NCBI GenBank assembly: GCA_016198905.1
Contig: JACQHR010000041.1
Coordinates: forward strand, 15,434-79,433
Reading direction: 5' to 3'
Source of the DNA: Candidatus Omnitrophota bacterium
GTDB lineage: Bacteria; Omnitrophota; Gorgyraeia; Aquiviventales; Aquiviventaceae
DNA length: 64,000 nucleotides
Shown: piece after piece, positions 5,565 through 41,885 of the stretch
Layout of the letters: each line of letters starts with the position of its first letter
Numbering within the stretch: position 1 is the first letter of the stretch
Notes under the pieces: generated by a model
Told to the model about the DNA's origin: nothing
Seen by the model: only the letters and a program-made list of their open reading frames with translations
Databases searched by the model: none
Translations under genes and position numbers: made by a program

Positions 5565-6548
5565 TCAGGCTACCCGCTTGATTGTCACTCGTCGGAGCAT
5601 TCGCATGACGTCGGCGCGATGGCATAACTCGGTCCCCGGCGTCATGGCCGTCGCCGTGCCGCTTGCGACGCCGAGGCGAAACGCGTCCTGCAAGGGCTGG
5701 CCGCGCACCCATCCGGTGAGAAATCCTCCGATGAGCGAATCCCCGGCACCGACCGCCGAGCGCGCTCGAATGCGTGGAGGGACTGCTTGCCACACCTCGC
5801 GCGTGTGCGCGCAGCCAAGGAGCGCGCCATCACGGCCCAGAGAGAGCATCACGATGCGCGGCCCCATCTGCAGCAGCCGCTGCATGCCGTGTACGCATTG
5901 AGTGACGGTCGTCAGTCGAGTCCTGAGCACTTCCGCAGCTTCGTCACGGTTAGGTTTGATGCACCACGGGTGCGCCCGGAGTCCGTGCCGCAGGGCTGCT
6001 CCTGAAGCGTCCAGCACCGTCGGGATATCTCGTGCTTGTAACAGTCGAATCCATCGCTGATACACATGGACCGGTGCGCCTGGCGGCAGGCTGCCGGAGA
6101 GGACGACGGCGGCGGGTGCGGGGCGATGCGTCAGCACCGTGCGCTGCAATGCCGCCAGCACGCGGCGAGAGACGACCGGCCCGGCGGTGTTGATTTCCGT
6201 GAGTCCTGCCGGATCGTCGGTGAGAATCTTGTAGTTGTTTCTCGTCGAGCCCGCCACAGGGATAAACCGATGCGGCAGAGCAAGCCGATTCATCAGCTCG
6301 CGCAGGATAAGCCCGTCGTCTCCTCCGGCCAGTCCAAATGCGACCGTATGTCCGCCGAGTTCATGCACGACGCGAGAGACGTTGATGCCCTTGCCGCCGG
6401 GATAGCGCGCGAAGCCGGTGGCGCGGTTGAGGCGGCCCACGCGCAGTGATGAGAGCTGCATCCATTCATCGAGGGAGGGATTGAGCGTGATGGTCGCGAT
6501 CACGGGATGCGCGCGACCGAGTGAGGGGGCTGGCCCGCGTGCGGCCAT
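5565..6548 (-). CDS. PfkB-family sugar kinase (1-phosphofructokinase/tagatose-6-P kinase type)
   Basis: ITLNPSLDEW N-terminal motif, GGKGINVSRV, and the C-terminal GAGDSLIGGF motif. Confidence 0.8.
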   Translation of the reverse strand: MAARGPAPSLGRAHPVIATITLNPSLDEWMQLSSLRVGRLNRATGFARYPGGKGINVSRVVHELGGHTVAFGLAGGDDGLILRELMNRLALPHRFIPVAGSTRNNYKILTDDPAGLTEINTAGPVVSRRVLAALQRTVLTHRPAPAAVVLSGSLPPGAPVHVYQRWIRLLQARDIPTVLDASGAALRHGLRAHPWCIKPNRDEAAEVLRTRLTTVTQCVHGMQRLLQMGPRIVMLSLGRDGALLGCAHTREVWQAVPPRIRARSAVGAGDSLIGGFLTGWVRGQPLQDAFRLGVASGTATAMTPGTELCHRADVMRMLRRVTIKRVA

Positions 6549-6554
6549 GCGGCC

Positions 6555-8039: not shown

Positions 8040-8077
8040 GGACGGAGCGCTCCTGTGGCGAGGCCGGCACGGACAGT

Positions 8078-9673: not shown

Positions 9674-11067
9674 GCATGCTCCGGGCCGCTCGGCCGAGAC
9701 GGCGACGGCGCAGAACTCTTCGTCTTGGACGGATCCGACGCCAGGTTGCCGGACCACGTCAAATTCACAATGGGGGTGATGGTCCGCGTGTGTTGCCCAT
9801 TGGACGAGGTCACGTCAATCGCGATCGTCTGCGTGCCCTCGGGCAACGCGACGCGGAGGCTGAAGGTGCCGTCTTTGCGCACGACGACCGGCTGGCCTTG
9901 CACGACCACGGTGGCCTTTGGCTCGGTCGCCCCATGGATGATGAGATCCGTATTGACGCGGCACCAGAAGCCGCGAACCGCCGCCGGCTTGCTCGGTCCG
10001 AGGAAACCCACGGATGACCCGCCGGCCGAGGACAGCTGTTGCGCAATGAGTCGTCCCCAAGCGGAGGGGCTTGAGCCTCCGATCCCGGGCGGCATCCCAA
10101 AGAGTTTCCAGTAGGCGTCGTCCGTCGTCATCCAGGCCTCATCGATCACATCCGAGGGCCCCCAACGCGGAGCCGTAACGCGATTGGAGCGCGCCAACAG
10201 GAGAAACTTCCCACCCTTGGTCAGCAAGCCGATCTCGACGATGAACGAGCGGCCCGGCGCGTCGGTTTGGATGTACCAGTTCGTCGCCAACCCGGAGAGC
10301 CCGATGTCGAAGAAGCGGTGCGCGGGCTGCCCAGGATAGTGGATGCCGGTCACGTCGTAGACGCGCAGGATGGATTGTAGGCCAGGAATTTCCGAGGGCA
10401 ACAAGTGGCTGCGCGCGGCGCGCTCGGTCGCGGGTTGAATCTCCCAGTAGGCGTAGAGCCAGAAGGGGTCCTTCACCATCAAGGCGATGAGATCGTCGCC
10501 ATAGCCCGTCGGAATGGAAAATTTCTCTTCCGGAGCCACGGGATGGGAGGCGGCGGCCGGGTGGCTATGGACGGAGTGCGCGGGCGGTGGAGAAACGGAC
10601 GGCGGCGTCCGGGTGGCCGGGGTCGCCCCTGTCGCGGAAATGGCCGGCTTCGGTTCACGCGATGCGGGTCGCCGCGTTCGTGTGGCCGATGCTGGGCGGC
10701 GTCGCATGCGCGCACTCTCCGTGGGTGGTGCGCTCGCGCGTGCGGCGCGCACCGTCGGCCCGCGAGCCGGCTTGCGCACGACAGAGACTCGGCGGACGTG
10801 CGCCGGCGTCGCCGGAGGCGTCTTGCGGGTCGGAGACTCTGGGGGGCGCGGACGTGCGGATGTCTTGCGTGTTATCGACCGCGCGCCTTGAGCGATCGCG
10901 GAGACGAGCGAGGACAGCGTTGACTTCCGTCGAGAGGGTGTGGCGGCCGCCGGTGTCGAGGACTTTCGGTTCTTGGAAGAGACGGGAGCGCTTTTAGCAG
11001 CAGAACGCGAGGTGGAGGATGTCGATGAGCGGGCGGCGTCCTTGCGGGACGATGCGCGACGTGCCAT
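9670..11067 (-). CDS. DUF4912-domain protein with ~180-aa basic S/T/P/R-rich N-terminal region
   Basis: DLIALMVKDPFWLYAYWEI is a DUF4912-type motif. A C-terminal beta-rich segment follows. The start codon within the low-complexity region is uncertain. Confidence 0.7.
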   Translation of the reverse strand: MARRASSRKDAARSSTSSTSRSAAKSAPVSSKNRKSSTPAAATPSRRKSTLSSLVSAIAQGARSITRKTSARPRPPESPTRKTPPATPAHVRRVSVVRKPARGPTVRAARASAPPTESARMRRRPASATRTRRPASREPKPAISATGATPATRTPPSVSPPPAHSVHSHPAAASHPVAPEEKFSIPTGYGDDLIALMVKDPFWLYAYWEIQPATERAARSHLLPSEIPGLQSILRVYDVTGIHYPGQPAHRFFDIGLSGLATNWYIQTDAPGRSFIVEIGLLTKGGKFLLLARSNRVTAPRWGPSDVIDEAWMTTDDAYWKLFGMPPGIGGSSPSAWGRLIAQQLSSAGGSSVGFLGPSKPAAVRGFWCRVNTDLIIHGATEPKATVVVQGQPVVVRKDGTFSLRVALPEGTQTIAIDVTSSNGQHTRTITPIVNLTWSGNLASDPSKTKSSAPSPSRPSGPEHA

Positions 11068-11184: not shown

Positions 11185-12405
11185 CTACCGCGGACTCACG
11201 CGCCATCCGTAACGGAAGAGGTCTGTGAACGACCGGCGAAACGCGCGGTTGGCGAGGTAGCTCAATGCGATCACGAGATAGCCGTACCCTAAGAGCATGC
11301 GAATGGCCGGCGTCGGAAACAGAAACTGCAGGAAAAACAGGCCCAGCAGCAGGAGCGCTTCCCACAATCCAAACTGCAGGTTCGCGAGAATGACGAGTCC
11401 TAGGAGCGATTGCGCAGCGGTCAAGAAGATTTCCTCGACCTGGCGCACATCGAGCGGCATCGGTTGCAGATGGCCTCCCGAGATCGAATAGACCAGCGGC
11501 AGCATCCCGACGAGCAGCGTCCACTGATTCACTTTCGAGGAGATCAACGTGCCCAAGCCGGCGGTGGGGTTGCGGCGCAAGGCAAAAATGATGGCGACGA
11601 TGAATTCGGGCGCTTCCGACGCCAGGGGTGCCAGCCACTGAATCAGGATGAATTCCTCAATCCTCAGGCGCCGGGCGTTATGGAGCAATCCGTTGGCGAA
11701 GGGCTCGGCGGAAATGAAAATCGCGTACGCCGGCAGCAGAAAAAGCATCGCAGTGACCACGCGTCTCCACGAACGCGGCAACAAGGCCAGCCGCTCCGGC
11801 GGACCGGCAAGCCCGGGTTCCTCCATATGACCGCGGCTGGCGCAGCGAATGTACACGACGAAGAGACTGAGGAAGAAGCCCGTGTCCCAGATGGAGAGCG
11901 TGCGCTTGATGGGAATGATGAACGCGTAGCACGTCGCCAGCAGGAGCGTGACGAGCTCGAGCCGCTGGCCGGGTTTGACCTTGATGGCGCCCTTGCGCGT
12001 GGCCGTCCAGGATGCCAACAAGACCGCGGACCATCCCATCCCGATGAGCAAACGATTCGCGCCCGTCATGTTGGCCGCCGCGAAGGCGATGTAGGACGGA
12101 TCGTGCGCGGCTTTCCACGCCAGGTACATGTCGACCGCGTATTCGGGTAGAACCGCCACGAGCGCGAGAAACGCGAGCGCCAGCGCCTGGGAAATTTCCA
12201 TCTGTGCCAGCTCCGCACCCCAGGACAGCAAGGCGGCGGCCCCAAAAATGGCCAGTCCCGGCAAGACGGTTTCCGCCACCGGTCCGAGGGAAAGATGCGC
12301 GAGGGAGTGGACGATGATCCATTGCCCGACGAGCCCGAGGGCAACCCCGAGAATCAGGTAGTCCCGGATCAAAGCCCGGAGCGGGCGGGCGGGTATTACG
12401 GACAT
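11185..12405 (-). CDS. cation/Ca2+ exchanger (CaCA-type) membrane protein
   Basis: 406 aa, polytopic. GAAALLSWGAELAQMEISQALALAFLALVAVLPEYAVD is alpha-repeat-like, and a second half repeat is present. Confidence 0.65.
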   Translation of the reverse strand: MSVIPARPLRALIRDYLILGVALGLVGQWIIVHSLAHLSLGPVAETVLPGLAIFGAAALLSWGAELAQMEISQALALAFLALVAVLPEYAVDMYLAWKAAHDPSYIAFAAANMTGANRLLIGMGWSAVLLASWTATRKGAIKVKPGQRLELVTLLLATCYAFIIPIKRTLSIWDTGFFLSLFVVYIRCASRGHMEEPGLAGPPERLALLPRSWRRVVTAMLFLLPAYAIFISAEPFANGLLHNARRLRIEEFILIQWLAPLASEAPEFIVAIIFALRRNPTAGLGTLISSKVNQWTLLVGMLPLVYSISGGHLQPMPLDVRQVEEIFLTAAQSLLGLVILANLQFGLWEALLLLGLFFLQFLFPTPAIRMLLGYGYLVIALSYLANRAFRRSFTDLFRYGWRVSPR

Positions 12406-12451: not shown

Positions 12452-12694
12452 TTACGAGCTGACGACGTCCCCGACGACGGGTTCGACTTTGATGCCCTTC
12501 TTTTCCAGGAATTGGACCGCCTTCTTGAGCCCGTCCTCGGAGCCTTCGAGCTCGAGGGTCACTTCTCCGATGCTGTCCGTGACCCGCGCGCGGCGGATGT
12601 TGGGAATGATGTCATACTCTTTGGACATCATGTAGATGACCGGTTCCTTGATGAGATGCTGCGGAAAAATGAGGGTGACCTGTTTCCGTGCCAT
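12452..12694 (-). CDS. stand-alone NIL-domain protein
   Basis: GGAGG RBS before the ATG at 12694. MARKQVTLIFPQHLIKEPVIYMMSKEYDIIPNIRRARVTDSIGEVTLELEG...FLEKKGIKVEPV matches the NIL fold pattern seen at the MetN C-terminus. Confidence 0.7.
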   Translation of the reverse strand: MARKQVTLIFPQHLIKEPVIYMMSKEYDIIPNIRRARVTDSIGEVTLELEGSEDGLKKAVQFLEKKGIKVEPVVGDVVSS

Positions 12695-12747
12695 GCGTCT
12701 CCTGACCTCCTTAGTTGCGCCTGATGGCCTCACAATGATCCCGAATG

Positions 12748-13551
12748 TCACGCCGTCCCGGCGCACAGCGGTTCCAGTTCCATGAGCGTCCGGATGGTGG
12801 GCTGCTCGCCGCAGACCGCGCACTGCGTATTGCGACGCACCGGCACGTCACGGACACGGCTTGTCATGCCGTCAAACATGAAGAGCCGATCGACCACGGG
12901 CTCCCCAAGACCCAAAAGGACTTTCAGCGTCTCATGCGCCATGAGGCTGCCGAGGATGCCGGCGACCGCTCCCACCACGCCGGCTTCCTGACAACTGGGA
13001 ATCGACCCTGCAGGCGGGGGTTCAGGAAACACACAGCGAAAGCACGCCCCTTGCCGAGGGAGAATCGTCATCACCTGCCCACCGAAATGGACGACACCGC
13101 CATGGATCAGCGGTTTGCCGAGCAACACGGCCGCGTCATTGACGAGATAGCGCGTGGAAAAATTATCCGACCCATCCACGACCACGTCATACGCATCGAG
13201 GATGTCTGCCGCATTGGCCGCACTCAGCCGCTCTTGAATTGGAATCACGGTCACGTGCGGATTGAGCGCTTCCAGCCGCGCCTGTGCCGAGCGCGCTTTG
13301 GGGGAGCCCACAGCTTCCGTCGTATGCAGAATTTGGCGATGGAGATTGCTCAGCGCCACGGACTCGGGGTCGATGATGCCAATGGTCCCCACGCCGGCCG
13401 CCGCCAGATAGAACGCCGCCGGCGAGCCCAATCCTCCGGCTCCGATGATGAGCACGGCCGCGTGGGTCAACTGCTGCTGCCCGGCCACCCCGATTTCCGG
13501 CAGGATCAGCTGACGACCATATCGCAAGATTTGTTCTTTAGATAATGTCAT
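12748..13551 (-). CDS. moeB: MoeB/ThiF-family E1-like adenylyltransferase, no rhodanese domain
   Basis: YGRQLILPEIGVAGQQQLTHAAVLIIGAGGLGSPAAFYLAAAGVG nucleotide-binding motif. CFRC...CAVC zinc motifs. Confidence 0.9.
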   Translation of the reverse strand: MTLSKEQILRYGRQLILPEIGVAGQQQLTHAAVLIIGAGGLGSPAAFYLAAAGVGTIGIIDPESVALSNLHRQILHTTEAVGSPKARSAQARLEALNPHVTVIPIQERLSAANAADILDAYDVVVDGSDNFSTRYLVNDAAVLLGKPLIHGGVVHFGGQVMTILPRQGACFRCVFPEPPPAGSIPSCQEAGVVGAVAGILGSLMAHETLKVLLGLGEPVVDRLFMFDGMTSRVRDVPVRRNTQCAVCGEQPTIRTLMELEPLCAGTA

Positions 13552-13560
13552 CGCGTTATG

Positions 13561-13601
13561 GGTGGCCTGGTGGCCACGAGGTCACACGGTCACGTGGCCA
13601 C
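13561..13601. repeat. REP-like palindromic element, copy B; overlaps the 3' end of the sulfur-carrier CDS
   Basis: ggtggcctggtggccacgaggtcacacggtcacgtggccac. It shares the 18-mer cacacggtcacgtggcca with copy C and has two self-complementary gtggccac octamers. Confidence 0.6.
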
Positions 13602-13881
13602 TGTATGATCCGCCGGCGATCGCAGGGATAATGGACACTTCGTCGCCGTCTTTGACCGCGGTCTGGTCGCCCTGGAGAAACCGGATGTCTTCCTCGTTCA
13701 CGAAGACGTTGACGAACCGGCGCAGCTTGCCCTGCGGGTCGCAGATGCGCTCTTTGATCCCCGGGTAGCGACGCTCCAGGTCACCCAAGAGCTCGGTGAC
13801 CGTCTTGCCGTCACAGGAGACTTCGCCCTGCCCGTTGGTGAGCCGCTGCAGCGGTGTCGGAATGCGCACGGTAATCGCCAT
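13582..13881 (-). CDS. MoaD/ThiS/CysO-like ubiquitin-fold sulfur carrier with 8-aa extension after the Gly-Gly
   Basis: GGAGG RBS. MAITVRIPTPLQRL...GDEVSIIPAIAGG-SYSGHVTV. About 90 aa of beta-grasp pattern ends in GG, then a tail follows. Confidence 0.8.
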   Translation of the reverse strand: MAITVRIPTPLQRLTNGQGEVSCDGKTVTELLGDLERRYPGIKERICDPQGKLRRFVNVFVNEEDIRFLQGDQTAVKDGDEVSIIPAIAGGSYSGHVTV

Positions 13882-13903
13882 GAAACCTCCTGCGTGGTGA
13901 GGG

Positions 13904-15154
13904 TTATCGCGCCGAGACGCCCCTGATGCGATCGCCAAGATTGTCTTCGAACGACGCCAGTGTGGGCTTGATGCGCGTCGCACTGCCCAGCCGATTCATG
14001 AGGGGTTCTTGCGTTTTCAATCCATTGCCGGTGATGCACACGACAATGGATTCGTCGCGTGGAATGGTTCCCTGCTCGATGAGCTTCTTGGTGACGGCAA
14101 GCGTCACCCCGCCGGCCGTCTCGGTGAAGACGCCTTCGGTTTCCGCGAGGAGCTTCATGGCCTCGATAATTTCATCGTCGCTGGCGGACTCGGCCCAGCC
14201 GCCGGAGTCCAGGACCGTTTTAGTGGCCGAGTAGCCATCAGCAGGATTGCCGATGGCGAGCGATTTGGCAATCGTGTTGGGCTTCACCGGCTTGACGATA
14301 TCGGCGCGCGCTTTGATCGTCGTGACGATCGGCGCGCAGCCTGTTGCCTGCGCGCAGTAAAATTTGGTGTGCGCCTCGGAGAGCAGCCCGAGGAGTGTCA
14401 GTTCCTTGAAGGCCTTGCCGATCTTCGTGATCAATGAGCCGCCCGCAGCGGGAATCACAATGTGCTGCGGCACGCGCCAGCCGAGCTGCTCGGCGATCTC
14501 GTAGCCGTAGGTCTTCGAGCCTTCCGCGTAGTAGGGGCGGATGTTGATGTTGACGAAGGCCCACGGGTACTTGGCCCCGATCTCGGCGCACAACCGGTTC
14601 ACTTCATCGTAGGTGCCTTCCACCGCAATGAGCGTGGGTTGATAGATGAGCGAGGCGATGACCTTGCCCATCTCCAGATCCGCGGGAATGAAGATGAAGC
14701 GCTTCAAGCCGGCTTTCGCCGCATGCGCGGAGACGGAATTGGCCAGGTTGCCCGTCGAGGCGCAGGCGACGGTATCGAAGCCGAACTCTTTCGCGCGGGT
14801 GAGTGCGACGGAGACGACGCGATCTTTGAAAGAGAGGGTCGGATGCGAGACGGAGTCGTCTTTGATGTAGAGTTCGCGCACGCCCAACGCGGTCGCGAGA
14901 CGGTCGGCCCTGAAGAAGGGGGTGAACCCCGAGGTCAAACCCACGGTCGGTTCCCCCTCGATAGGCAGCAACTCGCGATACCGCCACAGCGACTTGGGAC
15001 GCGACGCAAGGGCGGTTTTGGTCAGCACGCGGCGAATCGCGTCGTAGTCGTAATCCACCTCAACGCCGCCGAAACAGTACTCGCAGACGAACACCACCTC
15101 TTTGGGATAGCGGCGGCCGCATTCGCGACATTTGAGTCCAATGACGTAACTCAT
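13904..15154 (-). CDS. thrC: threonine synthase family PLP enzyme
   Basis: N-terminal zinc ribbon CRECGRRYP...CEYC and the PLP-lysine motif TLSFKDR. The start at MSYVIGLKC fits homologs. Confidence 0.85.
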   Translation of the reverse strand: MSYVIGLKCRECGRRYPKEVVFVCEYCFGGVEVDYDYDAIRRVLTKTALASRPKSLWRYRELLPIEGEPTVGLTSGFTPFFRADRLATALGVRELYIKDDSVSHPTLSFKDRVVSVALTRAKEFGFDTVACASTGNLANSVSAHAAKAGLKRFIFIPADLEMGKVIASLIYQPTLIAVEGTYDEVNRLCAEIGAKYPWAFVNINIRPYYAEGSKTYGYEIAEQLGWRVPQHIVIPAAGGSLITKIGKAFKELTLLGLLSEAHTKFYCAQATGCAPIVTTIKARADIVKPVKPNTIAKSLAIGNPADGYSATKTVLDSGGWAESASDDEIIEAMKLLAETEGVFTETAGGVTLAVTKKLIEQGTIPRDESIVVCITGNGLKTQEPLMNRLGSATRIKPTLASFEDNLGDRIRGVSAR

Positions 15155-15212
15155 GCGTTGGTGCGCTCGAGTTCTCGGACGTGGAATAAGATGCGTTGGT
15201 CCCACACGAGCC

Positions 15213-15473
15213 TCACGTGATGAGTGCTCGTTTTCTCACGAGCAGCCGCACGCCAGTCGTGGCCGGCTCGCTGACGAGGATCTCATGGCCTTCCGCGCGG
15301 AGCCCAAACGGAATGGTGTTCAACGGTTCGCCTTCATCGATGTAGAGTTCGAGGATTTCGTGCTCGGCCATTCCCTGCAATTGGACGACGGCTTTCTGAT
15401 AGCTCTCGGGACGATCGATCCCCCGAGCATCAAGAGACGCGTCGACGCGCAGGCCCGTCAGCGGTGTGGACAT
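15213..15473 (-). CDS. TusA/SirA-fold protein lacking the catalytic cysteine
   Basis: LDARGIDRPESY...ELYIDEGEPLNTIPFGLRAEGHEIL...LVRKR aligns by eye with E. coli TusA LDALGLRCPEP...IIADDPATTRDIP...LIRKG, but Cys is replaced by Arg. Confidence 0.5.
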   Translation of the reverse strand: MSTPLTGLRVDASLDARGIDRPESYQKAVVQLQGMAEHEILELYIDEGEPLNTIPFGLRAEGHEILVSEPATTGVRLLVRKRALIT

Positions 15474-16414
15474 TAGCTCTCAAAAAAGGCGTAGATGCTC
15501 AAGTACCGTTCTCCCGTATCAGAAAATACCGTGACCACGGTTTTACCGCTGCCCAGTTCTTTGGCGACCTTCAGCGCGGCCCAGCAGGCGGCTCCGGAGG
15601 AAATGCCGACGAAGAGCCCTTCTTCTTTCGCCAAGCGCCTTGAGGTCTCGTAGGCCTGCTCATCCGTGACTGGTATGATCTCATCAATGACGGCGCGATT
15701 CAAGACCTGCGGCACGAATCCCGCTCCGATGCCTTGAATCATGTGCGGCCCAGGGGCCCCACCGGAAAGCACCGGGGACGCCTTCGGTTCCACCGCCACA
15801 ATCTTCACGTTCGGATTCCTGCGTTTGAGGACTTCGCCGACTCCGGTCATGGTGCCGCCGGTGCCGACACCCGCCACGAACGCATCGATGGCGCCGTCGG
15901 TGACACGCAGAATTTCCTGCGCGGTCGTTTTGCGATGCGCCTCGGGATTGGCCGGATTGATGAACTGTTGGGGCATGAACGCGTTGGGGGTCTCTTTCGT
16001 GATTTTCTCGGCGCGTCTGACGGCTCCGATCATGCCTTCGGCGGCCGGCGTCAGCACGACCTCGGCGCCGTAGCCTTTGAGAATTTGGATGCGTTCGGCG
16101 CTCATCGTTTCCGGCATCGTCAGGACGATTTGGTAGCCTTTGGCCGCGCAAATCATCGCCAGGCCAATGCCGGTATTACCGCTCGTGGGCTCGACCACCG
16201 TCGAGCCGGGCTTGAGGAGTCCCTTGGCCTCGGCGTCTTCGATCATCGCCAGACAGATGCGGTCCTTCACGCTGCCGCCCGGATTGAACGATTCGAGCTT
16301 CGCAATGATGGTTGCCATGCGCGGTTCGACGATCCGCTGCAGGCGCAGCATCGGCGTATTCCCGATGAGTTCGACCACGCTCTCGGCGACTTTATGTTTG
16401 ACCGTATTCATCAT
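15473..16414 (-). CDS. cysK: cysteine synthase (O-acetyl/O-phosphoserine sulfhydrylase family)
   Basis: GNTPMLRL, the PLP-lysine [14 protein letters not shown], and GTGGT motifs. The A versus B/M subtype cannot be decided by eye. Confidence 0.9.
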
Positions 16415-16680
16415 CTCGTGTGTTCGCGGTGGGGAAGGATGCGCAGGGTCCGGTGTGCGCGTTCATGAACCGAGTGCCCTTGACTTGCGGCCCAGACGCG
16501 CAGATCCGCGGCGACATCCATCGTATTGTACATGACGTCAAGCGCCTGACTAGGCTGGAGCGCGTTCACGGCTTGCGCGACCACCGCCAGCGCCTGCGCG
16601 CAGAGCATGTCGCGCGCGTCCACGGTCAGCGTCGGAAGTTCGGCCATTATACCAGGTTGATTGAATCCTGTCTGCGTCAC
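16411..16680 (-). CDS. TusA/SirA-like sulfurtransferase, Cys retained
   Basis: [34 protein letters not shown] compares with TusA LDALGLRCPEPVMMVRKTV. ATGA overlaps on both sides. Confidence 0.65.
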
Positions 16681-17084
16681 CCGCCCGACTCGATGGTCAC
16701 AGGCTCTGGCGCAATCGTCTGCCCGTTAATCCGATAACTTTTGACATCCGGATGCGCCTGATCGTTCAACGACACGAGCACGTAGGATACGTCCGGCGAA
16801 ATGGCCAGACTGACATCCACCGATGACGGATACGCAGCGCTGGCCGTGTGGGAATGGAAAATTCCCAGGAGCTGCTGCCCCTGCCGGCGCATCTGCTGTT
16901 CCACCCGGAGCTGTTCGCGCGGGTCCATCGCGTAGCCGATCGAGCTGTCTTCGATGTTTGTCATCGGGTAGACCTGCATGACGCGGCCGTCGTTCCCTGC
17001 CAAGAGTCCGCACGCTTCTTTCGGATAACGGCTGCGGCAATGCGCGACCATCCGGTCCTGCAGGGCGTGCGGCATCCGCAGCAT
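16677..17084 (-). CDS. JAMM/MPN+ metallopeptidase (Mec/HcyD/QbsD-like)
   Basis: EACGLL glutamate motif plus HSHTASAAYPSSVD, which fits H-x-H-x7-S-x2-D. The start is 1 nt after the permease stop. Confidence 0.85.
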   Translation of the reverse strand: MLRMPHALQDRMVAHCRSRYPKEACGLLAGNDGRVMQVYPMTNIEDSSIGYAMDPREQLRVEQQMRRQGQQLLGIFHSHTASAAYPSSVDVSLAISPDVSYVLVSLNDQAHPDVKSYRINGQTIAPEPVTIESGG

Positions 17085-17085
17085 G

Positions 17086-17847
17086 TCACAGCGTTCCCGT
17101 GCCCCAGCGTTCGCGGACACGCCGCTCCAGGGGAGCAAAGGCCATCCGATCAACGAGGAGCCCCAAGGCCACGATCACCGCCATAACCGCAATCACTTGG
17201 CTCATGTCGTTCAATTCGCGTCCCATCATCAGCAAGTGCCCTAACCCGACGTGGCCGTACAATAACTCCCCGGCCATCAGCGCGCGCCAGGCAAACGACC
17301 AGCCCAGCTTCATGCCGGTGACAATCCCGGGCAACGCGGCCGGAAGCATCACCTGCAGATACAGCCGCCAGCCTGATGCCCCCATGTTTTTTGCCGCGCG
17401 GATTTGCTGTCTGGGAGTATGCTGCACGCCATCTTCCGCCGATAAACTGATAGACAGCACGGCCCCCATGACGACGACGAAGATAATCGCGCGTTCGTTC
17501 AGTCCGAACCAGAGCAAGGCCAAGGGCAACCAGCAGATGCTCGGCAGTGTTTGCAATCCCAGCAGCAGCGCTCCTATTGTTTGATGCAGCCAGCGAATCG
17601 AGCCGGTCAAGAGTCCCAATGGCAATCCGATCGCCAACGACATCCCGTAGCCAATGACGAGCCGCGTGAGACTCACGCCGAGCGCCCGCACGAGCGTGCC
17701 GTCTCGCAGGCTGTGGACGAGCATGGCGGCCACGCTCTGTGGCGAGGGAAACAGGAAGTCCGGCCACACGCGCAACAGATAGAGGGCCTGCCATCCCAGC
17801 AGCAGGCTTGCAAAAAACGCGACGCGGTACCACACCACTCGTTGCAT
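17086..17847 (-). CDS. ABC transporter permease, NitT/TauT (sulfonate/taurine/nitrate) family
   Basis: 6-TM pattern. EAA-loop RAAKNMGASGWRLYLQVMLPAALP is typical of SsuC/TauC-type permeases. Confidence 0.85.
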   Translation of the reverse strand: MQRVVWYRVAFFASLLLGWQALYLLRVWPDFLFPSPQSVAAMLVHSLRDGTLVRALGVSLTRLVIGYGMSLAIGLPLGLLTGSIRWLHQTIGALLLGLQTLPSICWLPLALLWFGLNERAIIFVVVMGAVLSISLSAEDGVQHTPRQQIRAAKNMGASGWRLYLQVMLPAALPGIVTGMKLGWSFAWRALMAGELLYGHVGLGHLLMMGRELNDMSQVIAVMAVIVALGLLVDRMAFAPLERRVRERWGTGTL

Positions 17848-17862
17848 CGAATACCTTGGGCC

Positions 17863-18927
17863 TCACGAGCCAGACACGTCTGGCAGTTGTTGTTCCCGCA
17901 GAACGGTATTGAGCAAGGTCGCATCGACCAGCCCGCTGAGGTTCGGGTTCGACGCTCCTAAGAATCCAACCGTGAACGCATGCTGCGCGCAGGCTTGCAA
18001 AGACGTCGCGAGCGGATCGTACGTCACCGTCAGCCTGGACCAGGCGTCATCCAGCACGGCAGCCGCAATGGGTTTGCCGGTCAGCCGCTGGAGCTCTGTA
18101 TTCAGCATCGCCTTGGCATCAACGGGATGCGCCGCAATCCAACGCGTCAGCTCCACATGCGCGCGCAACCATCGAAGAATCAACTCCTGGCGATCGTGCA
18201 GCGCCTGTGCGCTGACAATGACCACGGCGGTTGGGAATTGCCGCGTGGGCCAGAGGTCTCGTTCATCGACGAGGATCCGCCCATGGGCCTCATGCACGAG
18301 ACGAGCCCCCCACGGTTCCGGCACCCAGGCCGCGTCAATCTCCTTGCGCAGGAATCCACTGAGGATATCCGCATTCTGCATCGGCGTGACGCGGACCGTG
18401 CCTCCCCGCTCCGTCGCCTCAAGGTCGTGCTGGCGCAAGTAATGCCGCAGCGCGATGTCTTGCGTATTCCCTAATTGCGGCGTGGCGATGATCCGATTTG
18501 GAAAATCCTGCACCGACGTGATCCCGCTGTCCTCGCGCACGACGAGCACGGCGCCTCCGCTGGCCGCCCCCGCGACAATGCGCAAAGCCTGGCCATGAGA
18601 TTTCACAAAGCCATTGATGGCCGGATTCGGACCGATATACACCAGATCGAGTTCCCCGGCAAAGAGCGCTTCAATGGCAGCAGGGCCGGCATTCAGCGCA
18701 AAGGGGCGGATGTGCGCGTCCTCGCCCAGCGCCCGCTGAAACGCCCCGTTTGATAGACCAATCAGGGCTTGGGCATGAGTGATGTTCGGAAAGTAACCCA
18801 CGCGCAACTCCATCGCCCTGGGCTGTGGCTTGTCACAACCGCTGAGGAGCAGCAGCCCCATCGAGAGGGGGAGTCCCCAGCTCGACACGCTCCTGAACGA
18901 TTGCCACAACGACACGCCCATCCCCAT
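17863..18927 (-). CDS. ABC substrate-binding lipoprotein, NMT1/SsuA/TauA-like
   Basis: Lipobox LLLLSGC. VGYFPNITHAQALIG and LVYIGPNPAING are typical of this SBP family. Confidence 0.75.
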   Translation of the reverse strand: MGMGVSLWQSFRSVSSWGLPLSMGLLLLSGCDKPQPRAMELRVGYFPNITHAQALIGLSNGAFQRALGEDAHIRPFALNAGPAAIEALFAGELDLVYIGPNPAINGFVKSHGQALRIVAGAASGGAVLVVREDSGITSVQDFPNRIIATPQLGNTQDIALRHYLRQHDLEATERGGTVRVTPMQNADILSGFLRKEIDAAWVPEPWGARLVHEAHGRILVDERDLWPTRQFPTAVVIVSAQALHDRQELILRWLRAHVELTRWIAAHPVDAKAMLNTELQRLTGKPIAAAVLDDAWSRLTVTYDPLATSLQACAQHAFTVGFLGASNPNLSGLVDATLLNTVLREQQLPDVSGS

Positions 18928-18936
18928 GCCCTCCTG

Positions 18937-19776
18937 TTAAATATGCATCCCCAGCGATCGATCGGCAGCCACGCGCTGCGTTCCCTCGGGATAGCGCACC
19001 GACTCCCCCAACTCATCGCGCAACACTTTCTCGATTTCCTCTGCCAGCGACTGCAAGATTTTCTGTTGAGCCTGCGCGAGGGCCGGATGATCCGCATGCC
19101 GCGGTCGAGGCACGTCGATCCGTTCCACATCGCGAATGCGAGCCGGCCGCGCAGAGAGGACATACACGCGATCCGCCAACCCGATAGCTTCCCGTACGCT
19201 ATGCGTCACGAACAGCACCGAGCATCCGGTTTTCCGCCAAATCTCCAACAGCTCCTCTTGCAGGACCGCGCGCGTCTGCGCATCCAGTGCGCCAAAGGGC
19301 TCGTCCATTAAGAGGATGTCGGGCTGCATCACGAGCCCGCGGGCAATCGCGACCCGCTGGCGCATGCCGCCGGAGAGCTGATGCGGATAGGCGTGAGCAA
19401 ACTTCGAGAGGTGCACCAATTTGATGTAGGCCATCGCCGCGACGCGCCGTTCCTGCTTGGGCACATTCGCCATGCGCAGCCCAAACTCGACATTGCCCAA
19501 CACCGTCAGCCACGGAAAGAGCGCCGCGTCCTGGAAGACAACCACCCGGCGAGGTCCTGGACCAGTCACCGGCGTTCCGTCGACCAAAACGGTTCCGGCA
19601 TCGGGCGCATCGAGGCCGGCCACGAGATTCAGGATGGTGCTCTTGCCACAGCCCGTCGGGCCCAGCAGACACACAAACTCGCCCGGCTCTACAGCGAGGT
19701 TGATGTCCTGCAACACGTCAACCGCGTGGCCGTTGTGACGAAAGGACTTTGAGATGTGCTGAAGCTCAATGCGCAT
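18937..19776 (-). CDS. ABC transporter ATP-binding protein, NitT/TauT family
   Basis: Walker A GPTGCGKST, signature LSGGMRQRVAIARGL, Walker B LLMDEPFGALD. Confidence 0.9.
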   Translation of the reverse strand: MRIELQHISKSFRHNGHAVDVLQDINLAVEPGEFVCLLGPTGCGKSTILNLVAGLDAPDAGTVLVDGTPVTGPGPRRVVVFQDAALFPWLTVLGNVEFGLRMANVPKQERRVAAMAYIKLVHLSKFAHAYPHQLSGGMRQRVAIARGLVMQPDILLMDEPFGALDAQTRAVLQEELLEIWRKTGCSVLFVTHSVREAIGLADRVYVLSARPARIRDVERIDVPRPRHADHPALAQAQQKILQSLAEEIEKVLRDELGESVRYPEGTQRVAADRSLGMHI

Positions 19777-19824
19777 ACCGATGTCCTGTGCGAACGCTGG
19801 AATGCCTCCAACCGCCTGGCGAGC

Positions 19825-21006
19825 TCAGCGAGCGGCTGAGGCGTTCTGCCGCATCGCGGCAACCAAGATGGCCGCCACCTCAGGGCGAGAGATTTCATGC
19901 GGGGGCGGCGTTCCGGCCTGCAAGAGTTCTCGGACTTTCGTCCCGCTGAGCGACACGTGCTTCTCTGCCGGATGCGGGCACGTCTTGCTGGACACCATCC
20001 CCTCGCAGACGGTGCAGAACGCCATATTCTCGAAATTCAGCGGGGTGATGCCAATTTCTTCCGGTGTGAATGCATCAAAGATCTTCTGCGCGTCGTACGT
20101 GCCGTAGTATTTGCCTACACCGGCGTGGTCGCGCCCGACGATGAAATGCGTGCAGCCGTAATTCTTGCGGATGAGCGCATGGAAGATCGCTTCGCGCGGC
20201 CCGCCGTAGCGCATCGAAGCCGGGTTGACCGCCAAGATCACGCGATCCTTCGGATAATAATTCGCCAGAAGCGCTTCGTAACATTGCATGCGCACGGCCG
20301 CCGGGACGTCGTCCCCTTTGGTTTCGCCAATGATCGGGTGCAGGAGCATCCCATCGCAAATTTCCAGCGCGCATTTCTGAATGTATTCGTGGGCGCGGTG
20401 AATGGGATTGCGCGTCTGGAACGCCACGATGCGTCGCCAACCGCGCCGTGCAAACAGCGCTCGGGTATCTTTCGGGTCAAGCCGATAGGGTGCAAACGTC
20501 GTCGCCTTGGGGCGGTTCACGACGCTCACGCGTCCACCTAGATACGTGTCGCCAATGGCCTGAAGTCTGGCCACGCCAGGATGCGCGGCGTCGGTCGTCC
20601 GAAACACATGCTGCGCTTCGTTGGTTTTATCTGGCGTGTGGGCTTCGACCCGGTGCAGGATCGCGACAACCGTCCCGTTGGAGGTCAGCGCGATGTCTCC
20701 TTTCAGCCCTTGCGCCTGCGTTTTTGAGACGGCGAGGGTCACAGGGATCGTCCAGACCAATCCATTGGCGAGCCGGCGGTTGACCACGACGCTCTCGTAA
20801 TCGGCCTTGCCCATGAACCCTTGCAGCGGGCTGAAGCCTCCGATCGCGATCATCTCCACATCGGAGAGCGCCCACGCATCCAGCTCCACGGTTGGAAGCG
20901 TGCCGGCTGCTGCCAGCAGCGCGTCCCGTTCCTTGCCTTCTACGATGCGATTCACCAATGTGCCGCCATGCGCGTCAATCATGGGATCGTGCTCCAGTCG
21001 TGTCAT
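19825..21006 (-). CDS. sat: sulfate adenylyltransferase (ATP sulfurylase)
   Basis: QTRNPIHRAHE and VGRDHAGVG motifs. About 390 aa, the homo-oligomeric Sat type. Confidence 0.9.
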   Translation of the reverse strand: MTRLEHDPMIDAHGGTLVNRIVEGKERDALLAAAGTLPTVELDAWALSDVEMIAIGGFSPLQGFMGKADYESVVVNRRLANGLVWTIPVTLAVSKTQAQGLKGDIALTSNGTVVAILHRVEAHTPDKTNEAQHVFRTTDAAHPGVARLQAIGDTYLGGRVSVVNRPKATTFAPYRLDPKDTRALFARRGWRRIVAFQTRNPIHRAHEYIQKCALEICDGMLLHPIIGETKGDDVPAAVRMQCYEALLANYYPKDRVILAVNPASMRYGGPREAIFHALIRKNYGCTHFIVGRDHAGVGKYYGTYDAQKIFDAFTPEEIGITPLNFENMAFCTVCEGMVSSKTCPHPAEKHVSLSGTKVRELLQAGTPPPHEISRPEVAAILVAAMRQNASAAR

Positions 21007-21141
21007 TGGTCAATGAGAACCACGCGAGTTGCCCATTCCGCTTCAGGCAAAGTGATCTTAAAGATGCCATAGATGACAAATCATGTCAATATATAAAACG
21101 AAAGAAGTCCATAGTAGATTAGTGAAATGGTAGGATAAATA

Positions 21142-22467
21142 TTAACTGCTTCGCTGCTCAAATTGCTGCAACCAGGCTTTAATCGTTTTTTCGAACCCAA
21201 GGTCGGTCGGTTCGTAATACACGCGACGGGTAGGAAGGTAGTCCTGCTTCACGTGGTGCTGTGGATAATCATGCGCATATTTGTAGCCTGTGCCGCGACC
21301 GAGCTTCTTGGCGCTCTGATAACTGGCGTCCTTGAGATGTTGCGGCACCTCCAGCGTGCGCCCCTCTTTGACATCCTGCATCGCCTTCTCGATCCCGAGA
21401 TAGGCGGCGTTGGATTTTGGCGCGCACGCGATGTACACCGTAGCTTGCGCTAACGGAATGCGCGCTTCAGGCAGCCCTACGAATTCCGCTGCGTGCAGTG
21501 CGGCGGTCGCCAGCATCAGGGCTTGCGGATCTGCGTTGCCGACATCTTCAGAGGCACAGATGATGATGCGTCGGGCGATGAACCGCGGATCTTCGCCGGC
21601 ATAGAGCATTTTTGCCAGCCAATAGAGCGACGCGTGCGGATCGGAGCCGCGCATCGATTTGATGAAGGCGGAAATCGTATCGTAGTGCGCATCGCCGTCT
21701 CGATCGTAGATGACCGCTTTCTTCTGAATCGACTGCTCAACGGCTGCAACGGTGAGATGGATCATCTCATCGGGTCCTGCTGGTGTCGTCAGCGCCGCGA
21801 CCTCGAGGGCGTTGAGCGCACGACGCGCGTCGCCATCACATGCCTCGGCCAGATGCGCGAGAGCGGCGTCATCGGCGCGAATCGGCATGACCCCAAGTCC
21901 CCGCTCCTTGTCACGCAACGCGCGCTGCAGCAGCGTGCTGATATCCGTTGCGGCCAGCGGACGAAACTCGCAGACGAGCGACCGCGAGACGAGCGCCGGC
22001 GCAATGACGAAGAACGGGTTGAGTGTTGTGGCCCCGATCAAGATCGGATTGCCCTGCTCCACATCGGGCATGAGGACGTCCTGCTGCGCTTTGTTGAATC
22101 GATGGATTTCGTCGACGAACAGGATGGTGCGTTTGCCGGAGGTCTTCGCGCGCTGCTTGGCTTGAGTGAGCGCTTTGCGCACCTCGTCGACGCCCGCGGC
22201 CGTCGCGTTCAGCGGCTCAAAGGAGGCCTGGGTCGCACCGGCGATGATGTGAGCAAGCGCGGTCTTGCCTGTCCCTGGCGGGCCATAGAGGATGAGTGAG
22301 GTGATGCGATCGGCGTGAATGGCGCGGTGCAGGAGCTGCCCCGGACCCACGAGGTGCTGCTGGCCCACGAACTCTTCCAGGCTGCGCGGCCGCATCCGCG
22401 CAGCCAACGGTTGCGGTGTCGAGGCAGGTTCCTGGGGAGCACTAAACAAATCCATCAAGTTCGGCAC
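21142..22467 (-). CDS. rarA: replication-associated recombination protein A (AAA+ ATPase)
   Basis: RPRSLEEFVGQQHL, Walker A GPPGTGKTALA, FVDEIHRFNK, and the C-terminal MgsA helical domain YDxISAFIKSMRGSDP. Confidence 0.9.
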   Translation of the reverse strand: MPNLMDLFSAPQEPASTPQPLAARMRPRSLEEFVGQQHLVGPGQLLHRAIHADRITSLILYGPPGTGKTALAHIIAGATQASFEPLNATAAGVDEVRKALTQAKQRAKTSGKRTILFVDEIHRFNKAQQDVLMPDVEQGNPILIGATTLNPFFVIAPALVSRSLVCEFRPLAATDISTLLQRALRDKERGLGVMPIRADDAALAHLAEACDGDARRALNALEVAALTTPAGPDEMIHLTVAAVEQSIQKKAVIYDRDGDAHYDTISAFIKSMRGSDPHASLYWLAKMLYAGEDPRFIARRIIICASEDVGNADPQALMLATAALHAAEFVGLPEARIPLAQATVYIACAPKSNAAYLGIEKAMQDVKEGRTLEVPQHLKDASYQSAKKLGRGTGYKYAHDYPQHHVKQDYLPTRRVYYEPTDLGFEKTIKAWLQQFEQRSS

Positions 22468-22800
22468 TAAGAAAAAACGGCAAACAATTCTTGGACTTGG
22501 CGAGGTTGTTGCGCATCCTAACGGGCAGGAAAATCACTCAGCACGTCTATCTTAGTACTGAGTGCTTAGTGCTCTGTGCTAAGAAAAAGCCCCGTCTCTG
22601 CCGTTGGTTCCGTCCACGTTGAACCCTACCTCAACAGGTGGGTACCCTCTCCGATGGGGGATAGCGTCCCGTGTTTCGTTCTGGGCGTGCGAACCCCAAC
22701 GAAAGCCGGATTCCCGGTCACGTGGTGTTGGCTCACGTCGACTGGAACCTGACGCGCAGTACAGGGCTCATGTTTACGCTAGCACTGGGGCCGGCCAATT

Positions 22801-23547
22801 TCAAGGAGTTTTCGGCCCCGAGGTCGGAGGCGCCGGGGGCTTGCCGATCTCGTGGATGCCGCATTCGGTTTTTCCCTGCCCGGCCCAGCGTCCTGAGCGC
22901 GGATCATTCGGATCGACTGGTTTCTGGGTGTGCAACGCGCAGCCGATCGATGTGTAGCCCTGAAACCACAGCGGGTGATATGGAAGCCGGTGTTGTGTCA
23001 TGTAGGCGTGGACTTGCTTCGCCGTCCAGGCGGCAAGCGGGGCGACTTTGACGATCCCATTGCTGAGCCCCTCAACGATCGGGGTTTCGCGACGAGTGGC
23101 CGCCTCTTCCCGCATCAACCCCGCGATCCAGCAGCGCACGCCTGCGAGCGCTCGTTCGGTAGCTGCTCGCTTGTAGGCGCCGCAGCAGTAGTTGTCATCG
23201 ATCGGTTGAGTCGGATGTTGGCGCTTCAGCCGTTCAATGGTCGCGTCATCGAGTGTTGTGCGATAGACCGTCAGGTTCAGATGGAGGCGCCGGGTGAGAT
23301 CCGCCATGTGGTGGAGCGTTTCGGGAAACAAGAATCCCGTATCCACCGTGCGGATACTGATGTGCGGGTCGACGGACAGCGCCATGTGGAGAATCGCCGC
23401 GCTATCCGTCCCGAACGACGAGGTCAGCGCCACATTCGGACGGAATGTCTCGACTGCCCAGCGGATGATCTCCGTCGGGTGCGCGGACTCAAACGTGGCG
23501 TTGAGTCGCTGAACCTCTTGAGGGGTCAGGGCTGAGGCATTGGACAT
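22801..23547 (-). CDS. cysH: (phospho)adenylylsulfate reductase, thioredoxin-dependent family
   Basis: SSFGTDSAAILH P-loop-like motif, DTGFLFPET, CC pair (NYCCGAYK), SIGCALHT, and the C-terminal KTECGIHE. An alternative start lies at 23586. Confidence 0.85.
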   Translation of the reverse strand: MSNASALTPQEVQRLNATFESAHPTEIIRWAVETFRPNVALTSSFGTDSAAILHMALSVDPHISIRTVDTGFLFPETLHHMADLTRRLHLNLTVYRTTLDDATIERLKRQHPTQPIDDNYCCGAYKRAATERALAGVRCWIAGLMREEAATRRETPIVEGLSNGIVKVAPLAAWTAKQVHAYMTQHRLPYHPLWFQGYTSIGCALHTQKPVDPNDPRSGRWAGQGKTECGIHEIGKPPAPPTSGPKTP

Positions 23548-23592
23548 GCTGCTGGCTCCAACGAAAACACGCGCGCTGCGAAACATCCAGCA

Positions 23593-24147
23593 TCAGGATT
23601 TCGTCGCGTGCGCCTTGGCGGAAGGAATCCATCCTTCGCGCTCCAGGTAGCTCAGGATCGTCCTGAGGCTTTCCTGCTCGCTTTGGTGCTCGCTATCAAT
23701 GGTGATCTCGGGCTTCAGCGGGGCTTCGTACGGATCAGAGACGCCGGTAAAGTTCTTGAGCTCTCCGGCAATCGCTTTTTTGTAGAGCCCCTTCACGTCG
23801 CGCCGTGTGAGCTCCTCGATGGAGCACTGGACGTAGACCTCGATAAACCGGCCGATCTGCTCACGGTTATAGTCGCGGATTTCCCGGTAGGGTGAAATGG
23901 CCGCGCTGATGGCGATAACGCCATTGCGACTCAGGAGCTTGCAAACGTAGCCGATGCGCTTGATATTGGTGTCGCGGTCTTCCTTGCTAAAGCCGAGCCC
24001 CTTGCTGAGGTTCGTGCGCACTTCATCTCCGTCAAGAATTTCTACGTTGAGCCCGCGGTGCCGTAGCTCCTTGGCGACATAGTGCGAGAGCGTGGATTTG
24101 CCTGCCCCCGACAACCCGGTAAACCATAACGTGAACCCTTTGCGCAT
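23593..24147 (-). CDS. cysC: adenylylsulfate kinase
   Basis: [22 protein letters not shown]-loop, then [21 protein letters not shown]. Confidence 0.9.
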
Positions 24148-24267
24148 CCGAGCATCCTCTCTGCTAGCGGGTGATGAAATGACCGGGACCGACGGTCTCA
24201 GCCCCGGAATACGGTGCCTGTAGTATAGCACAGCGTCGAGCGCACGTCTGCGTGCGCCTGTGTGCGT

Positions 24268-37979: not shown

Positions 37980-38056
37980 GGATATGCGTGCTCGTGTCCG
38001 CCATTGTACTCAACGCTTAGGATAAATCCAACTGAAAAGTGCGGCTGAGATTCACG

Positions 38057-39638: not shown

Positions 39639-39652
39639 CTAATAACTTTTCT

Positions 39653-40215: not shown

Positions 40216-40221
40216 TGGGCT

Positions 40222-41881: not shown

Positions 41882-41885
41882 TGTG

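Follow-up and report, generated by a model that had tools for sequence, protein, structure and literature searches.

A candidate MetM/MetO-type homocysteine route in a sulfate-assimilation gene cluster of an Omnitrophota bacterium, and a NIL-domain partner of its sulfur carrier

Introduction

A stretch of 64,000 nucleotides from Candidatus Omnitrophota bacterium (assembly GCA_016198905.1, contig JACQHR010000041.1, positions 15,434 to 79,433; called the window here, with all coordinates given in its own numbering) carries on its minus strand a run of genes in which a ubiquitin-like sulfur carrier of the ThiS/MoaD family, an E1 enzyme and a JAMM metallopeptidase stand among genes of sulfate assimilation. 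The same run encodes a cysteine synthase, a pyridoxal 5'-phosphate (PLP) enzyme of the threonine synthase (ThrC) family, two TusA-fold proteins and a stand-alone NIL domain. Which amino acid does such a carrier supply with sulfur, and what is the part of the NIL protein next to it? A reading made earlier from the sequence alone had taken the carrier, E1 and JAMM genes for a module that incorporates sulfur through a protein thiocarboxylate, and this is supported by the analysis described here. We propose, with a probability of roughly 0.7 for the core scheme, that the cluster is an assimilatory sulfur operon around a MetM/MetO-type protein-thiocarboxylate homocysteine route, with the cysteine synthase attached. 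The genes at the centre of this proposal are the following, in the order of transcription.

16677-17084, minus strand: Prok-JAB/JAMM metallopeptidase, Mec/HcyD-like (PF14464, 87 bits)
16411-16647/16680, minus strand: TusA-like protein with a single Cys (PF01206, 28.1 bits, E 1.9e-6)
15473-16414, minus strand: CysK, cysteine synthase of the CysK/O-acetylserine sulfhydrylase A type (TIGR01139, 464 bits)
15213-15473, minus strand: TusA-like protein without Cys (PF01206, 26.2 bits, E 7e-6)
13904-15154, minus strand: ThrC-family PLP enzyme with N-terminal Zn ribbon, MetM-type candidate (PALP, 217 bits)
13582-13881, minus strand: ThiS/MoaD carrier, CysO/MetO-type (PF02597, 67.6 bits)
12748-13551, minus strand: ThiF/MoeB E1 of 267 residues, no rhodanese domain (PF00899, 275 bits)
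12452-12694, minus strand: stand-alone NIL protein of 80 residues (PF09383, 53.7 bits)

Results

By its annotation, the ThrC-like protein would be a threonine synthase. It scores 289 bits with the NCBIfam thrC model TIGR00260, well above the cutoff of 167, the solved structures closest to it are true threonine synthases, and the database names of its homologues all read 'threonine synthase'. If these names were right, the gene would provide the host with threonine, and carrier, E1 and JAMM would be left to a route for cysteine only, of the CysO/CysM type. In order to see in which surroundings this enzyme occurs, the window protein was aligned with 15 representatives of diverse origin, and with this alignment as query 80 loci from GTDB species genomes were collected. 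Open reading frames (ORFs) were called in these loci and compared with the proteins of the window by means of phmmer and jackhmmer. The ThrC-like proteins of all 80 loci are 55-69% identical to that of the window and come from more than 10 phyla, among them Planctomycetota, Nitrospirota, Verrucomicrobiota, Acidobacteriota, Chloroflexota, Cyanobacteria, Thermodesulfobacteriota, Methylomirabilota, Nitrospinota and Actinomycetota. A gene for a CysO-like carrier adjoins the ThrC-like gene in 69 of the 80 loci, many of them without a cysteine synthase; in the window it begins 22 nucleotides downstream.

Control of this clade was revealed by S-adenosylmethionine (SAM) riboswitches. Of 17 short loci searched with Rfam, 8 have a SAM-I riboswitch (RF00162, 62-98 bits) immediately ahead of the ThrC-like gene, and a covariance model built from these eight gave 35 SAM-I matches in 33 of 86 sources, every one of which shares the strand of the ThrC-like gene and lies just in front of it. 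With this model, no match was found away from that position in 1.37 Mb of sequence. In total, 32 of the 80 survey loci carry the element at this place, as do two further loci, L084 and L086, and Rfam confirmed 11 matches, including, independently of the covariance model, the three in L084 and L086. In L086, tandem SAM-I riboswitches (4779-4881 and 5014-5118) precede one ThrC-like gene.

In four loci (L007, L009, L012 and L082) a second, shorter ThrC, the housekeeping enzyme, is co-resident. This housekeeping ThrC is 63% identical between Nitrospirota and Nostoc, and only 32-36% identical to the ThrC-like clade, indicating a distinct orthologue group. Riboswitch control in 32 of the 80 loci, the carrier next door in most of them and the separate housekeeping enzyme all speak against a plain threonine synthase in the window, and the GapMind 2026 preprint describes MetM as often misannotated as threonine synthase. 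We therefore consider the reading of a host threonine synthase beside a cysteine-only carrier route to be very improbable.

What these loci resemble is a pathway described in Streptomyces albulus by Hasebe et al. 2024 (as cited in bioRxiv 10.1101/2024.10.14.618325 and PMC12172450), in which the ThrC homologue MetM converts O-phosphohomoserine to homocysteine using the thiocarboxylate of MetO. MetO is the carrier, matured by a Mec-type JAMM and charged by MoeZ, as the GapMind 2026 preprint reports in citing Hasebe 2024, and a SAM riboswitch lies upstream of S. albulus metM in what PMC12172450 relates of that gene. The window protein is 58% identical to the ThrC-like protein of the Microcystis locus L083, and the protein of M. 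aeruginosa is reported to be 51.6% identical to S. albulus MetM, with its neighbour 47% identical to MetO (PMC12172450). From these comparisons we conclude that the ThrC-like gene is a predicted member of the MetM-type methionine-pathway orthologue group. That a ThrC-family enzyme might act in homocysteine synthesis had been anticipated in the sequence-only reading, and the riboswitches, the adjoining carrier and the separate housekeeping ThrC bear this out; the pairing with the carrier, which it had called unusual, is real and already published as the MetM/MetO route.

The carrier has as its closest solved relative CysO of Mycobacterium tuberculosis (3dwg_C, 93.5 bits, E 8e-26). Its score with the moaD model TIGR01682 amounts to 20 bits, far below the cutoff of 66, and neither MoaE nor ThiG is encoded in the 64-kb window, so that nothing found here assigns the carrier to molybdenum cofactor or thiamin synthesis, the roles that would have spoken against a sulfur-incorporation module. 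The C-terminus of the carrier reads AIAGG and continues with an eight-residue tail, SYSGHVTV, which results from a change of TGA to TCA at ~13606-13608 (read-through segment 13582-13608, minus strand); in two close relatives the stop codon follows directly after the glycine pair (GG-TGA). Short tails after the Gly-Gly motif are common in the carrier family, which fits a need for maturation by the JAMM peptidase. The metal-site motifs of the latter, EACG and HSHx9SxxD (HSHTASAAYPSSVD), are intact. The E1 matches only the E1 part of the MoeZ/MoeB-rhodanese models, covering positions 14-274 of the 392-position MoeZ model, in agreement with the earlier statement that it has no rhodanese domain, and its GxGxxG motif, two CxxC pairs and Cys187 are all present. 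Such an E1 together with TusA had been listed among the unusual features of the cluster; this no longer holds, as the combination was described in 2006 in sulfate-assimilation operons, where the row 4e operons of Iyer et al. 2006 (PMC1779556) contain ThiS/MoaD, JAB, an E1 that is always without rhodanese, SirA (= TusA) and sulfate-assimilation genes.

Arrangements of carrier and E1 vary among the loci. An actinomycetotal locus (L016, around 11235-12302) has the carrier fused to E1, and in six Nitrospirota loci (L024, L032, L044, L050, L055 and L074) two E1 genes flank the ThrC-like, carrier and NIL genes (CysK-E1-ThrC-like-carrier-NIL-E1); in five of these loci a JAMM gene comes next, the region of L024 ending early downstream.

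Carrier, E1 and JAMM could also, instead of or besides carrying sulfur, form a protein-conjugation system like SAMP or TtuB, and the best NCBIfam matches do include SAMP1 (57.5 bits, cutoff 60), the SAMP-activating E1 UbaA and desampylase (78.5 bits, cutoff 130). However, all three scores lie below their cutoffs, the gene context is purely one of sulfur and amino-acid metabolism, CysO is the closest solved relative of the carrier, and riboswitch control ties the module to methionine. A conjugation system is accordingly quite improbable in our opinion.

The cysteine synthase was examined with respect to its subtype. It reaches 464 bits with the cysK model TIGR01139 (cutoff 351) and only 314 and 301 bits with the cysM models (cutoffs 394 and 413), and its best solved relatives are of CysK type (8srt, 398 bits; M. 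tuberculosis CysK1, 2q3b, 389 bits), M. tuberculosis CysM not being among the best 60 solved relatives. The precedent of M. tuberculosis CysO/CysM that the sequence-only reading had drawn on is therefore one of architecture only, as the enzyme is CysK-type and not CysM-type. The cysteine synthase in the cluster of L084 was tested as a candidate for a CysM-like enzyme of the M. tuberculosis kind and proved not to be specifically so.

This bears on the question of whether the carrier feeds a single PLP enzyme. It may serve homocysteine synthesis only, with CysK as a conventional O-acetylserine sulfhydrylase that uses sulfide and is no more than co-expressed with the genes of sulfur assimilation, a view to which we give somewhat less than an even chance. 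Besides the CysK-type profile and structural relatives, the many ThrC-like/carrier loci without a nearby cysteine synthase are in its favour, among them all cyanobacterial ones and most of those with riboswitches. On the other hand, CysK is translationally coupled in the window between the two TusA genes, just after JAMM, by overlaps of 4 nucleotides and 1 nucleotide; a CysK of the same subtype (375-460 bits) forms part of the module in 10 loci, from Planctomycetia, Nitrospirota, Nitrospinota, Actinomycetota and one unclassified metagenome-assembled genome (MAG); and no cysE lies nearby. Plausibly, the cluster serves both homocysteine and cysteine. Of the earlier suggestion that the carrier feeds more than one PLP enzyme, the homocysteine part is supported, while the use of the carrier by CysK is unproven.

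Both TusA-fold calls lie just under the Pfam gathering score (28.1 and 26.2 bits versus 28.6). As had been noted before, one of the two proteins is cysteine-less: at 15213-15473 the catalytic site reads RGIDRPESY, with Arg at the Cys site, and in the relative L002 it reads RGVEQPASY, with Gln at the Cys position. Module TusA orthologues of other phyla (L013, L016, L033 and L084) keep the motif G-x-[IV]-CP. The protein at 16411-16680 has a single Cys in a non-canonical DMLCAQAL context without any CP motif, and outside the window such a Cys-bearing divergent TusA was seen in L001 and L002 alone, both of them close relatives; in L001 the cysteine-less copy is absent. These motifs indicate that the module TusA has lost its Cys in this lineage and that the Cys-bearing copy would be a divergent, lineage-specific addition. 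For this reason, the idea of TusA as a persulfide relay is weakened.

We now turn to the NIL protein, a gene product of 80 residues with a good ribosome-binding site before its start (MARKQ) and with 85-100% identical counterparts in many Omnitrophota contigs. Since it contains no cysteine, it does not serve as a carrier of persulfide sulfur. In 37 of the 80 survey loci the ThrC-like gene has a NIL gene in its company. When L001 and L002 are included, 39 of 40 NIL hits share the strand of the ThrC-like gene and lie no more than 4 kb downstream of it, and most of them abut the carrier gene. In six of the 80 loci carrier and NIL are encoded in one ORF, in which the carrier ending in AIAGG is followed by a linker of 4-25 residues and then by NIL; these loci belong to Omnitrophota, Planctomycetia, three Thermodesulfobacteriota-type deltaproteobacteria and one unclassified MAG. 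A fusion used as query against a set of 5.8 billion proteins gave 4864 matches with E < 1e-10. The best 120 of these all contain PF02597 and PF09383, are 58-100% identical to the query and 167-189 residues long, and bear only the names "MoaD family protein" or "molybdopterin synthase sulfur carrier subunit". Three further genomic contexts were inspected, in which the fusion directly follows a PALP enzyme of 414-419 residues, two of them with SAM riboswitches, and in L084 the fusion is followed by E1, TusA, cysteine synthase and JAB. The NIL protein of the window is 44-48% identical to the NIL half of the fusions, with the alignment beginning just after the GG linker, and is the split form of their C-terminal half. 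A JAMM gene is nearby in all five fusion loci with enough flank, compared to 8 of 63 unfused ones (Fisher p = 1.2e-4). PDB entry 1v8c, a 168-residue 'MoaD related protein' of Thermus thermophilus, continues after VAGG with about 77 extra residues that form an unassigned domain.

The AlphaFold (AF2) model of a fusion has a mean predicted local distance difference test score of 89.9, the values being lower around the GG linker. Its first domain is CysO-like (3dwg_C, template modelling score 0.91), and its NIL half corresponds to the C2 domain of MetN (3tui_C, root-mean-square deviation 1.1 A over 74 columns), a selenomethionine-soaked MetN crystal form being among the structure matches of this half. 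Also, a profile of fusions and stand-alone NIL proteins hits MetN C2 (3dhx_A, E 8e-7). The closeness of this fold to the methionine-binding MetN C2 fits the ligand-sensor role that had been suggested for NIL on first inspection. Similarly, methionine binding and a regulatory role are ascribed to the NIL domain in the homocysteine enzyme of methanogens (PMC12068725), and in Desulfovibrio genetic evidence shows NIL-ferredoxin to be necessary for making homocysteine (PMC5764234). By analogy to these proteins we tentatively prefer, at distinctly less than even odds, the reading that NIL may exert methionine feedback on carrier maturation or use.

The main alternative, only slightly less probable in our view, is that NIL is not a methionine sensor but either shields the C-terminus of the carrier as a pro-domain or cap or, comparable to MoaE, helps the homocysteine synthase to dock as one of its subunits. 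The co-occurrence of carrier-GG-NIL fusions with JAMM is in its favour, and there is a precedent in the MoaD-MoaE fusions of the layout carrier-GG-partner that are cleaved by JAMM (PMC4326299, PMC8832034), the fused partner there being a subunit of the thiocarboxylate-using enzyme. The resemblance to methionine-binding MetN C2 and the methionine binding described for the methanogen NIL point the other way, and the many loci that lack NIL, including all cyanobacterial ones, indicate that it is not catalytically essential. Going beyond methionine feedback as such, NIL could be a dedicated third component of the thiocarboxylate homocysteine route, synthesised either within a carrier-GG-NIL pro-protein or on its own as a subunit, in which methionine binding would gate processing by JAMM, charging by E1 or use by MetM. 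We regard this version as doubtful. If it were true, bacterial amino-acid synthesis would possess a metabolite-controlled maturation step resembling that of ubiquitin precursors, and the MetM/MetO route would be tied mechanistically to the NIL-ferredoxin homocysteine pathway of methanogens and Desulfovibrio. In the literature searched, no mention was found of NIL linked to ThiS/MoaD-type carriers or to the MetM/MetO pathway, which is not proof of its being unpublished.

Gene order and operon boundaries

Upstream of the JAMM gene, the following features continue the run on the same strand.

23593-24150, minus strand: cysC, adenosine 5'-phosphosulfate (APS) kinase (Pfam/NCBIfam, 265 bits)
22801-23586, minus strand: cysH, 3'-phosphoadenosine 5'-phosphosulfate (PAPS) reductase (225 bits)
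22585-22770, minus strand: 6S RNA gene (Rfam RF00013, 78.9 bits)
21142-22467, minus strand: rarA
19825-21006, minus strand: sat, ATP sulfurylase, with which the core operon begins (NF003166, 556 bits)
18937-19776, minus strand: ABC ATPase of a NitT/TauT-family importer
17863-18927, minus strand: SsuA-family binding protein (TIGR01728, 178 bits, cutoff 163.5)
17086-17847, minus strand: ABC permease

All 15 protein-coding genes that the sequence-only reading had named were recovered at their minus-strand positions by ORF calls and Pfam/NCBIfam searches, and the junctions of 1 or 4 nucleotides at 17086/17084, 16680/16677, 16414/16411 and 15473 are as it gave them. It had overlooked the 6S RNA gene, the tail of the carrier after the Gly-Gly motif and the conserved pairing or fusion of NIL and carrier. 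With respect to its single minus-strand run, the shared strand and the order of genes stand, while the notion of one operon does not: as the 6S RNA gene and rarA intervene before sat, cysC and cysH form a separate unit outside the transcription unit of sat and the later genes. The position of cysH and cysC is variable among relatives, with cysH after rarA and no cysC in L001 and with neither gene in the retrieved region of L002. The 6S RNA directly upstream of rarA is shared by the window and the two related Omnitrophota contigs L001 (2903-3087) and L002 (1204-1389), with RF00013 scores of 79-82 bits, and this conserved 6S-rarA arrangement sits downstream of pheST. A promoter and terminator scan of 12-24.5 kb gave a count of terminator-like sites equal to the shuffled expectation and weak promoter-like sites, and operon boundaries were not drawn from it.

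To speak of complete sulfate activation and import, as had been done, was too strong, since a sulfite reductase is missing from the window and the importer is of the NitT/TauT (SsuA) type and not a CysPTWA sulfate transporter. Its binding-protein gene is absent from the relatives L001 and L002. The names SaoA, SaoP and SaoX, which denote a selenoprotein-linked transporter, came up as best NCBIfam matches of the ABC genes at scores far below the cutoffs, and were set aside as uninformative. An O-acetylhomoserine sulfhydrylase is not among the window ORFs; the acceptor role would be taken by the ThrC paralogue and CysK.

Neighbouring regions

Downstream of the sulfur cluster, a glycogen-type gene set on the minus strand (5565-11067) comprises a PfkB kinase, a starch synthase-like GT5 enzyme, a GH57 branching enzyme and a DUF4912 protein, and is syntenic in L002. 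The neighbourhood of the chromosomal replication origin occupies 36346-50280, where parB, parA and yidC on the minus strand are followed, after a dip of the G+C content to 0.49 at 38-40 kb, by plus-strand dnaA (40493-41881), dnaN, gyrB and gyrA. The latter gene (46252-50280, plus strand) encodes a product of 1342 residues, in which an intein splicing domain (PF14890, residues ~150-630) lies within the topoisomerase domain. Cyclic di-GMP riboswitches of the type c-di-GMP-I-GGC (RF03167) are present outside the sulfur cluster in L001 (13358-13436, minus strand) and in L002 (18752-18828, minus strand).

Discussion

The scheme that we propose builds on observed family assignments, gene linkage, SAM-riboswitch control of the ThrC-like clade and adjacency or fusion of NIL and carrier. 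In this scheme, sulfate would be activated and reduced to sulfite by Sat together with CysC and CysH, the latter two encoded further upstream, and an unlinked sulfite reductase would provide sulfide. JAMM would trim the eight-residue tail of the carrier and expose the Gly-Gly terminus, the rhodanese-less E1 would adenylate the C-terminal Gly, and the carrier thiocarboxylate (carrier-COSH) would be formed with free sulfide or with a persulfide on the Cys-bearing TusA. The MetM-type ThrC paralogue would then replace the phosphate of O-phosphohomoserine by the thiocarboxylate sulfur and, after an acyl shift, JAMM would free homocysteine from the adduct, as Mec does with CysO-cysteine. Cysteine would be the product of CysK, with sulfur taken from this carrier or from free sulfide. 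The 80-residue NIL protein would act as a stoichiometric partner of the carrier, most likely coupling the methionine level to carrier maturation or use.

Several points weigh against this scheme. Every chemical step, the sulfur donor and the roles of CysK and NIL are inferred. Within the 64-kb window there is no sulfite reductase, no homoserine kinase and no cysE, and neither Rfam nor our own SAM model detects a SAM riboswitch there. The orthology to MetM is indirect, as it would run through the Microcystis protein and the shared riboswitch and carrier context, and the Microcystis homologue itself has threonine deaminase activity and was not seen to act fully as MetM in vivo (PMC12172450). CysK is by its sequence of the classical type that uses sulfide and O-acetylserine. 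The carrier tail may be a real loss of the stop codon, tolerable through JAMM, or else an assembly error. In the case of NIL, the role is suggested by analogy with MetN C2 and with the NIL-ferredoxin of methanogens, and the predicted template modelling score of the AF2 fusion model (pTM 0.53) gives no confident docking of NIL on the carrier, both domains themselves being confident.

Taken as a whole, the cluster is a composite of published modules, namely the 4e operon of Iyer et al., the MetM/MetO pathway and a CysO-type carrier, and the gene set itself will not surprise a specialist. What seems to be undescribed is the conserved partnership with NIL, including the family of carrier-NIL fusions tied to JAMM. 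The pairing of a cysteine-less module TusA with a lineage-specific Cys-bearing paralogue also seems to be new, as does the presence of a CysK-type and not a CysM-type cysteine synthase inside such a module. For annotation, this means that behind thousands of entries labelled "threonine synthase" and MoaD-family or molybdopterin carrier, from at least 10 phyla, there most likely stand an enzyme of the methionine pathway and the carrier belonging to it, and the SAM-riboswitch survey provides independent support at the level of sequence for re-annotating the clade as MetM-type. The pairing of NIL with the carrier and the JAMM-linked fusions point to an accessory or regulatory layer on protein-thiocarboxylate sulfur transfer, for which the NIL-carrier proteins offer a simple soluble system to study NIL function in homocysteine synthesis.

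Comparison with known systems

By their published text, the row 4e operons of Iyer 2006 (PMC1779556), which include HcyS/HcyD/HcyF/MetY of Wolinella succinogenes, share with the window ThiS/MoaD, JAB, the rhodanese-less E1, SirA/TusA, an ABC transporter, PAPS reductase, ATP sulfurylase and APS kinase. In contrast to those operons, the O-acetylhomoserine sulfhydrylase is replaced here by the ThrC paralogue and CysK, the cluster contains no sulfite reductase, NIL is added and the module TusA is cysteine-less. The CysO/CysM/Mec/MoeZ system of M. tuberculosis likewise has a CysO-type carrier, a JAMM with an intact metal site and a clustered cysteine synthase; the window differs from it in having a CysK-type enzyme instead of the O-phosphoserine CysM-type and an E1 without rhodanese.

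With regard to NIL, two kinds of proteins invite comparison. The MoaD-MoaE fusions, such as MoaX of M. tuberculosis (PMC4326299) and that handled by DRJAMM of Deinococcus (PMC8832034), show the same carrier-GG-partner layout as the carrier-NIL fusions of the relatives, with JAMM co-occurring, but there the partner is the catalytic MoaE and the product molybdopterin, whereas here it is an 80-residue NIL and the theme is methionine, and in the window the two genes are separate. MetN C2 and the NIL-ferredoxin of L-aspartate-semialdehyde sulfurtransferase in methanogens and Desulfovibrio share the fold (3tui_C) and the theme of methionine or homocysteine supply. Unlike the NIL-ferredoxin system, NIL is here stand-alone or fused to a carrier, with neither a 4Fe-4S ferredoxin domain nor cysteine, and no DUF39 hit that would mark a COG1900/DUF39 partner appeared among the window ORFs scanned.

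The closest likeness in the arrangement of enzyme and carrier is to MetM/MetO of S. albulus, where a ThrC-homologous PLP enzyme is also encoded directly upstream of a MoaD/ThiS-family carrier and where, going by papers that cite Hasebe et al. 2024, a JAMM (Mec) and an E1 are needed as well. A SAM riboswitch precedes the gene in S. albulus and in part of the related loci; the window copy is without one. The window further differs from S. albulus in placing this pair inside a sulfate-assimilation operon, together with CysK, two TusA-fold proteins, a rhodanese-less E1 and a JAMM of its own, and NIL.

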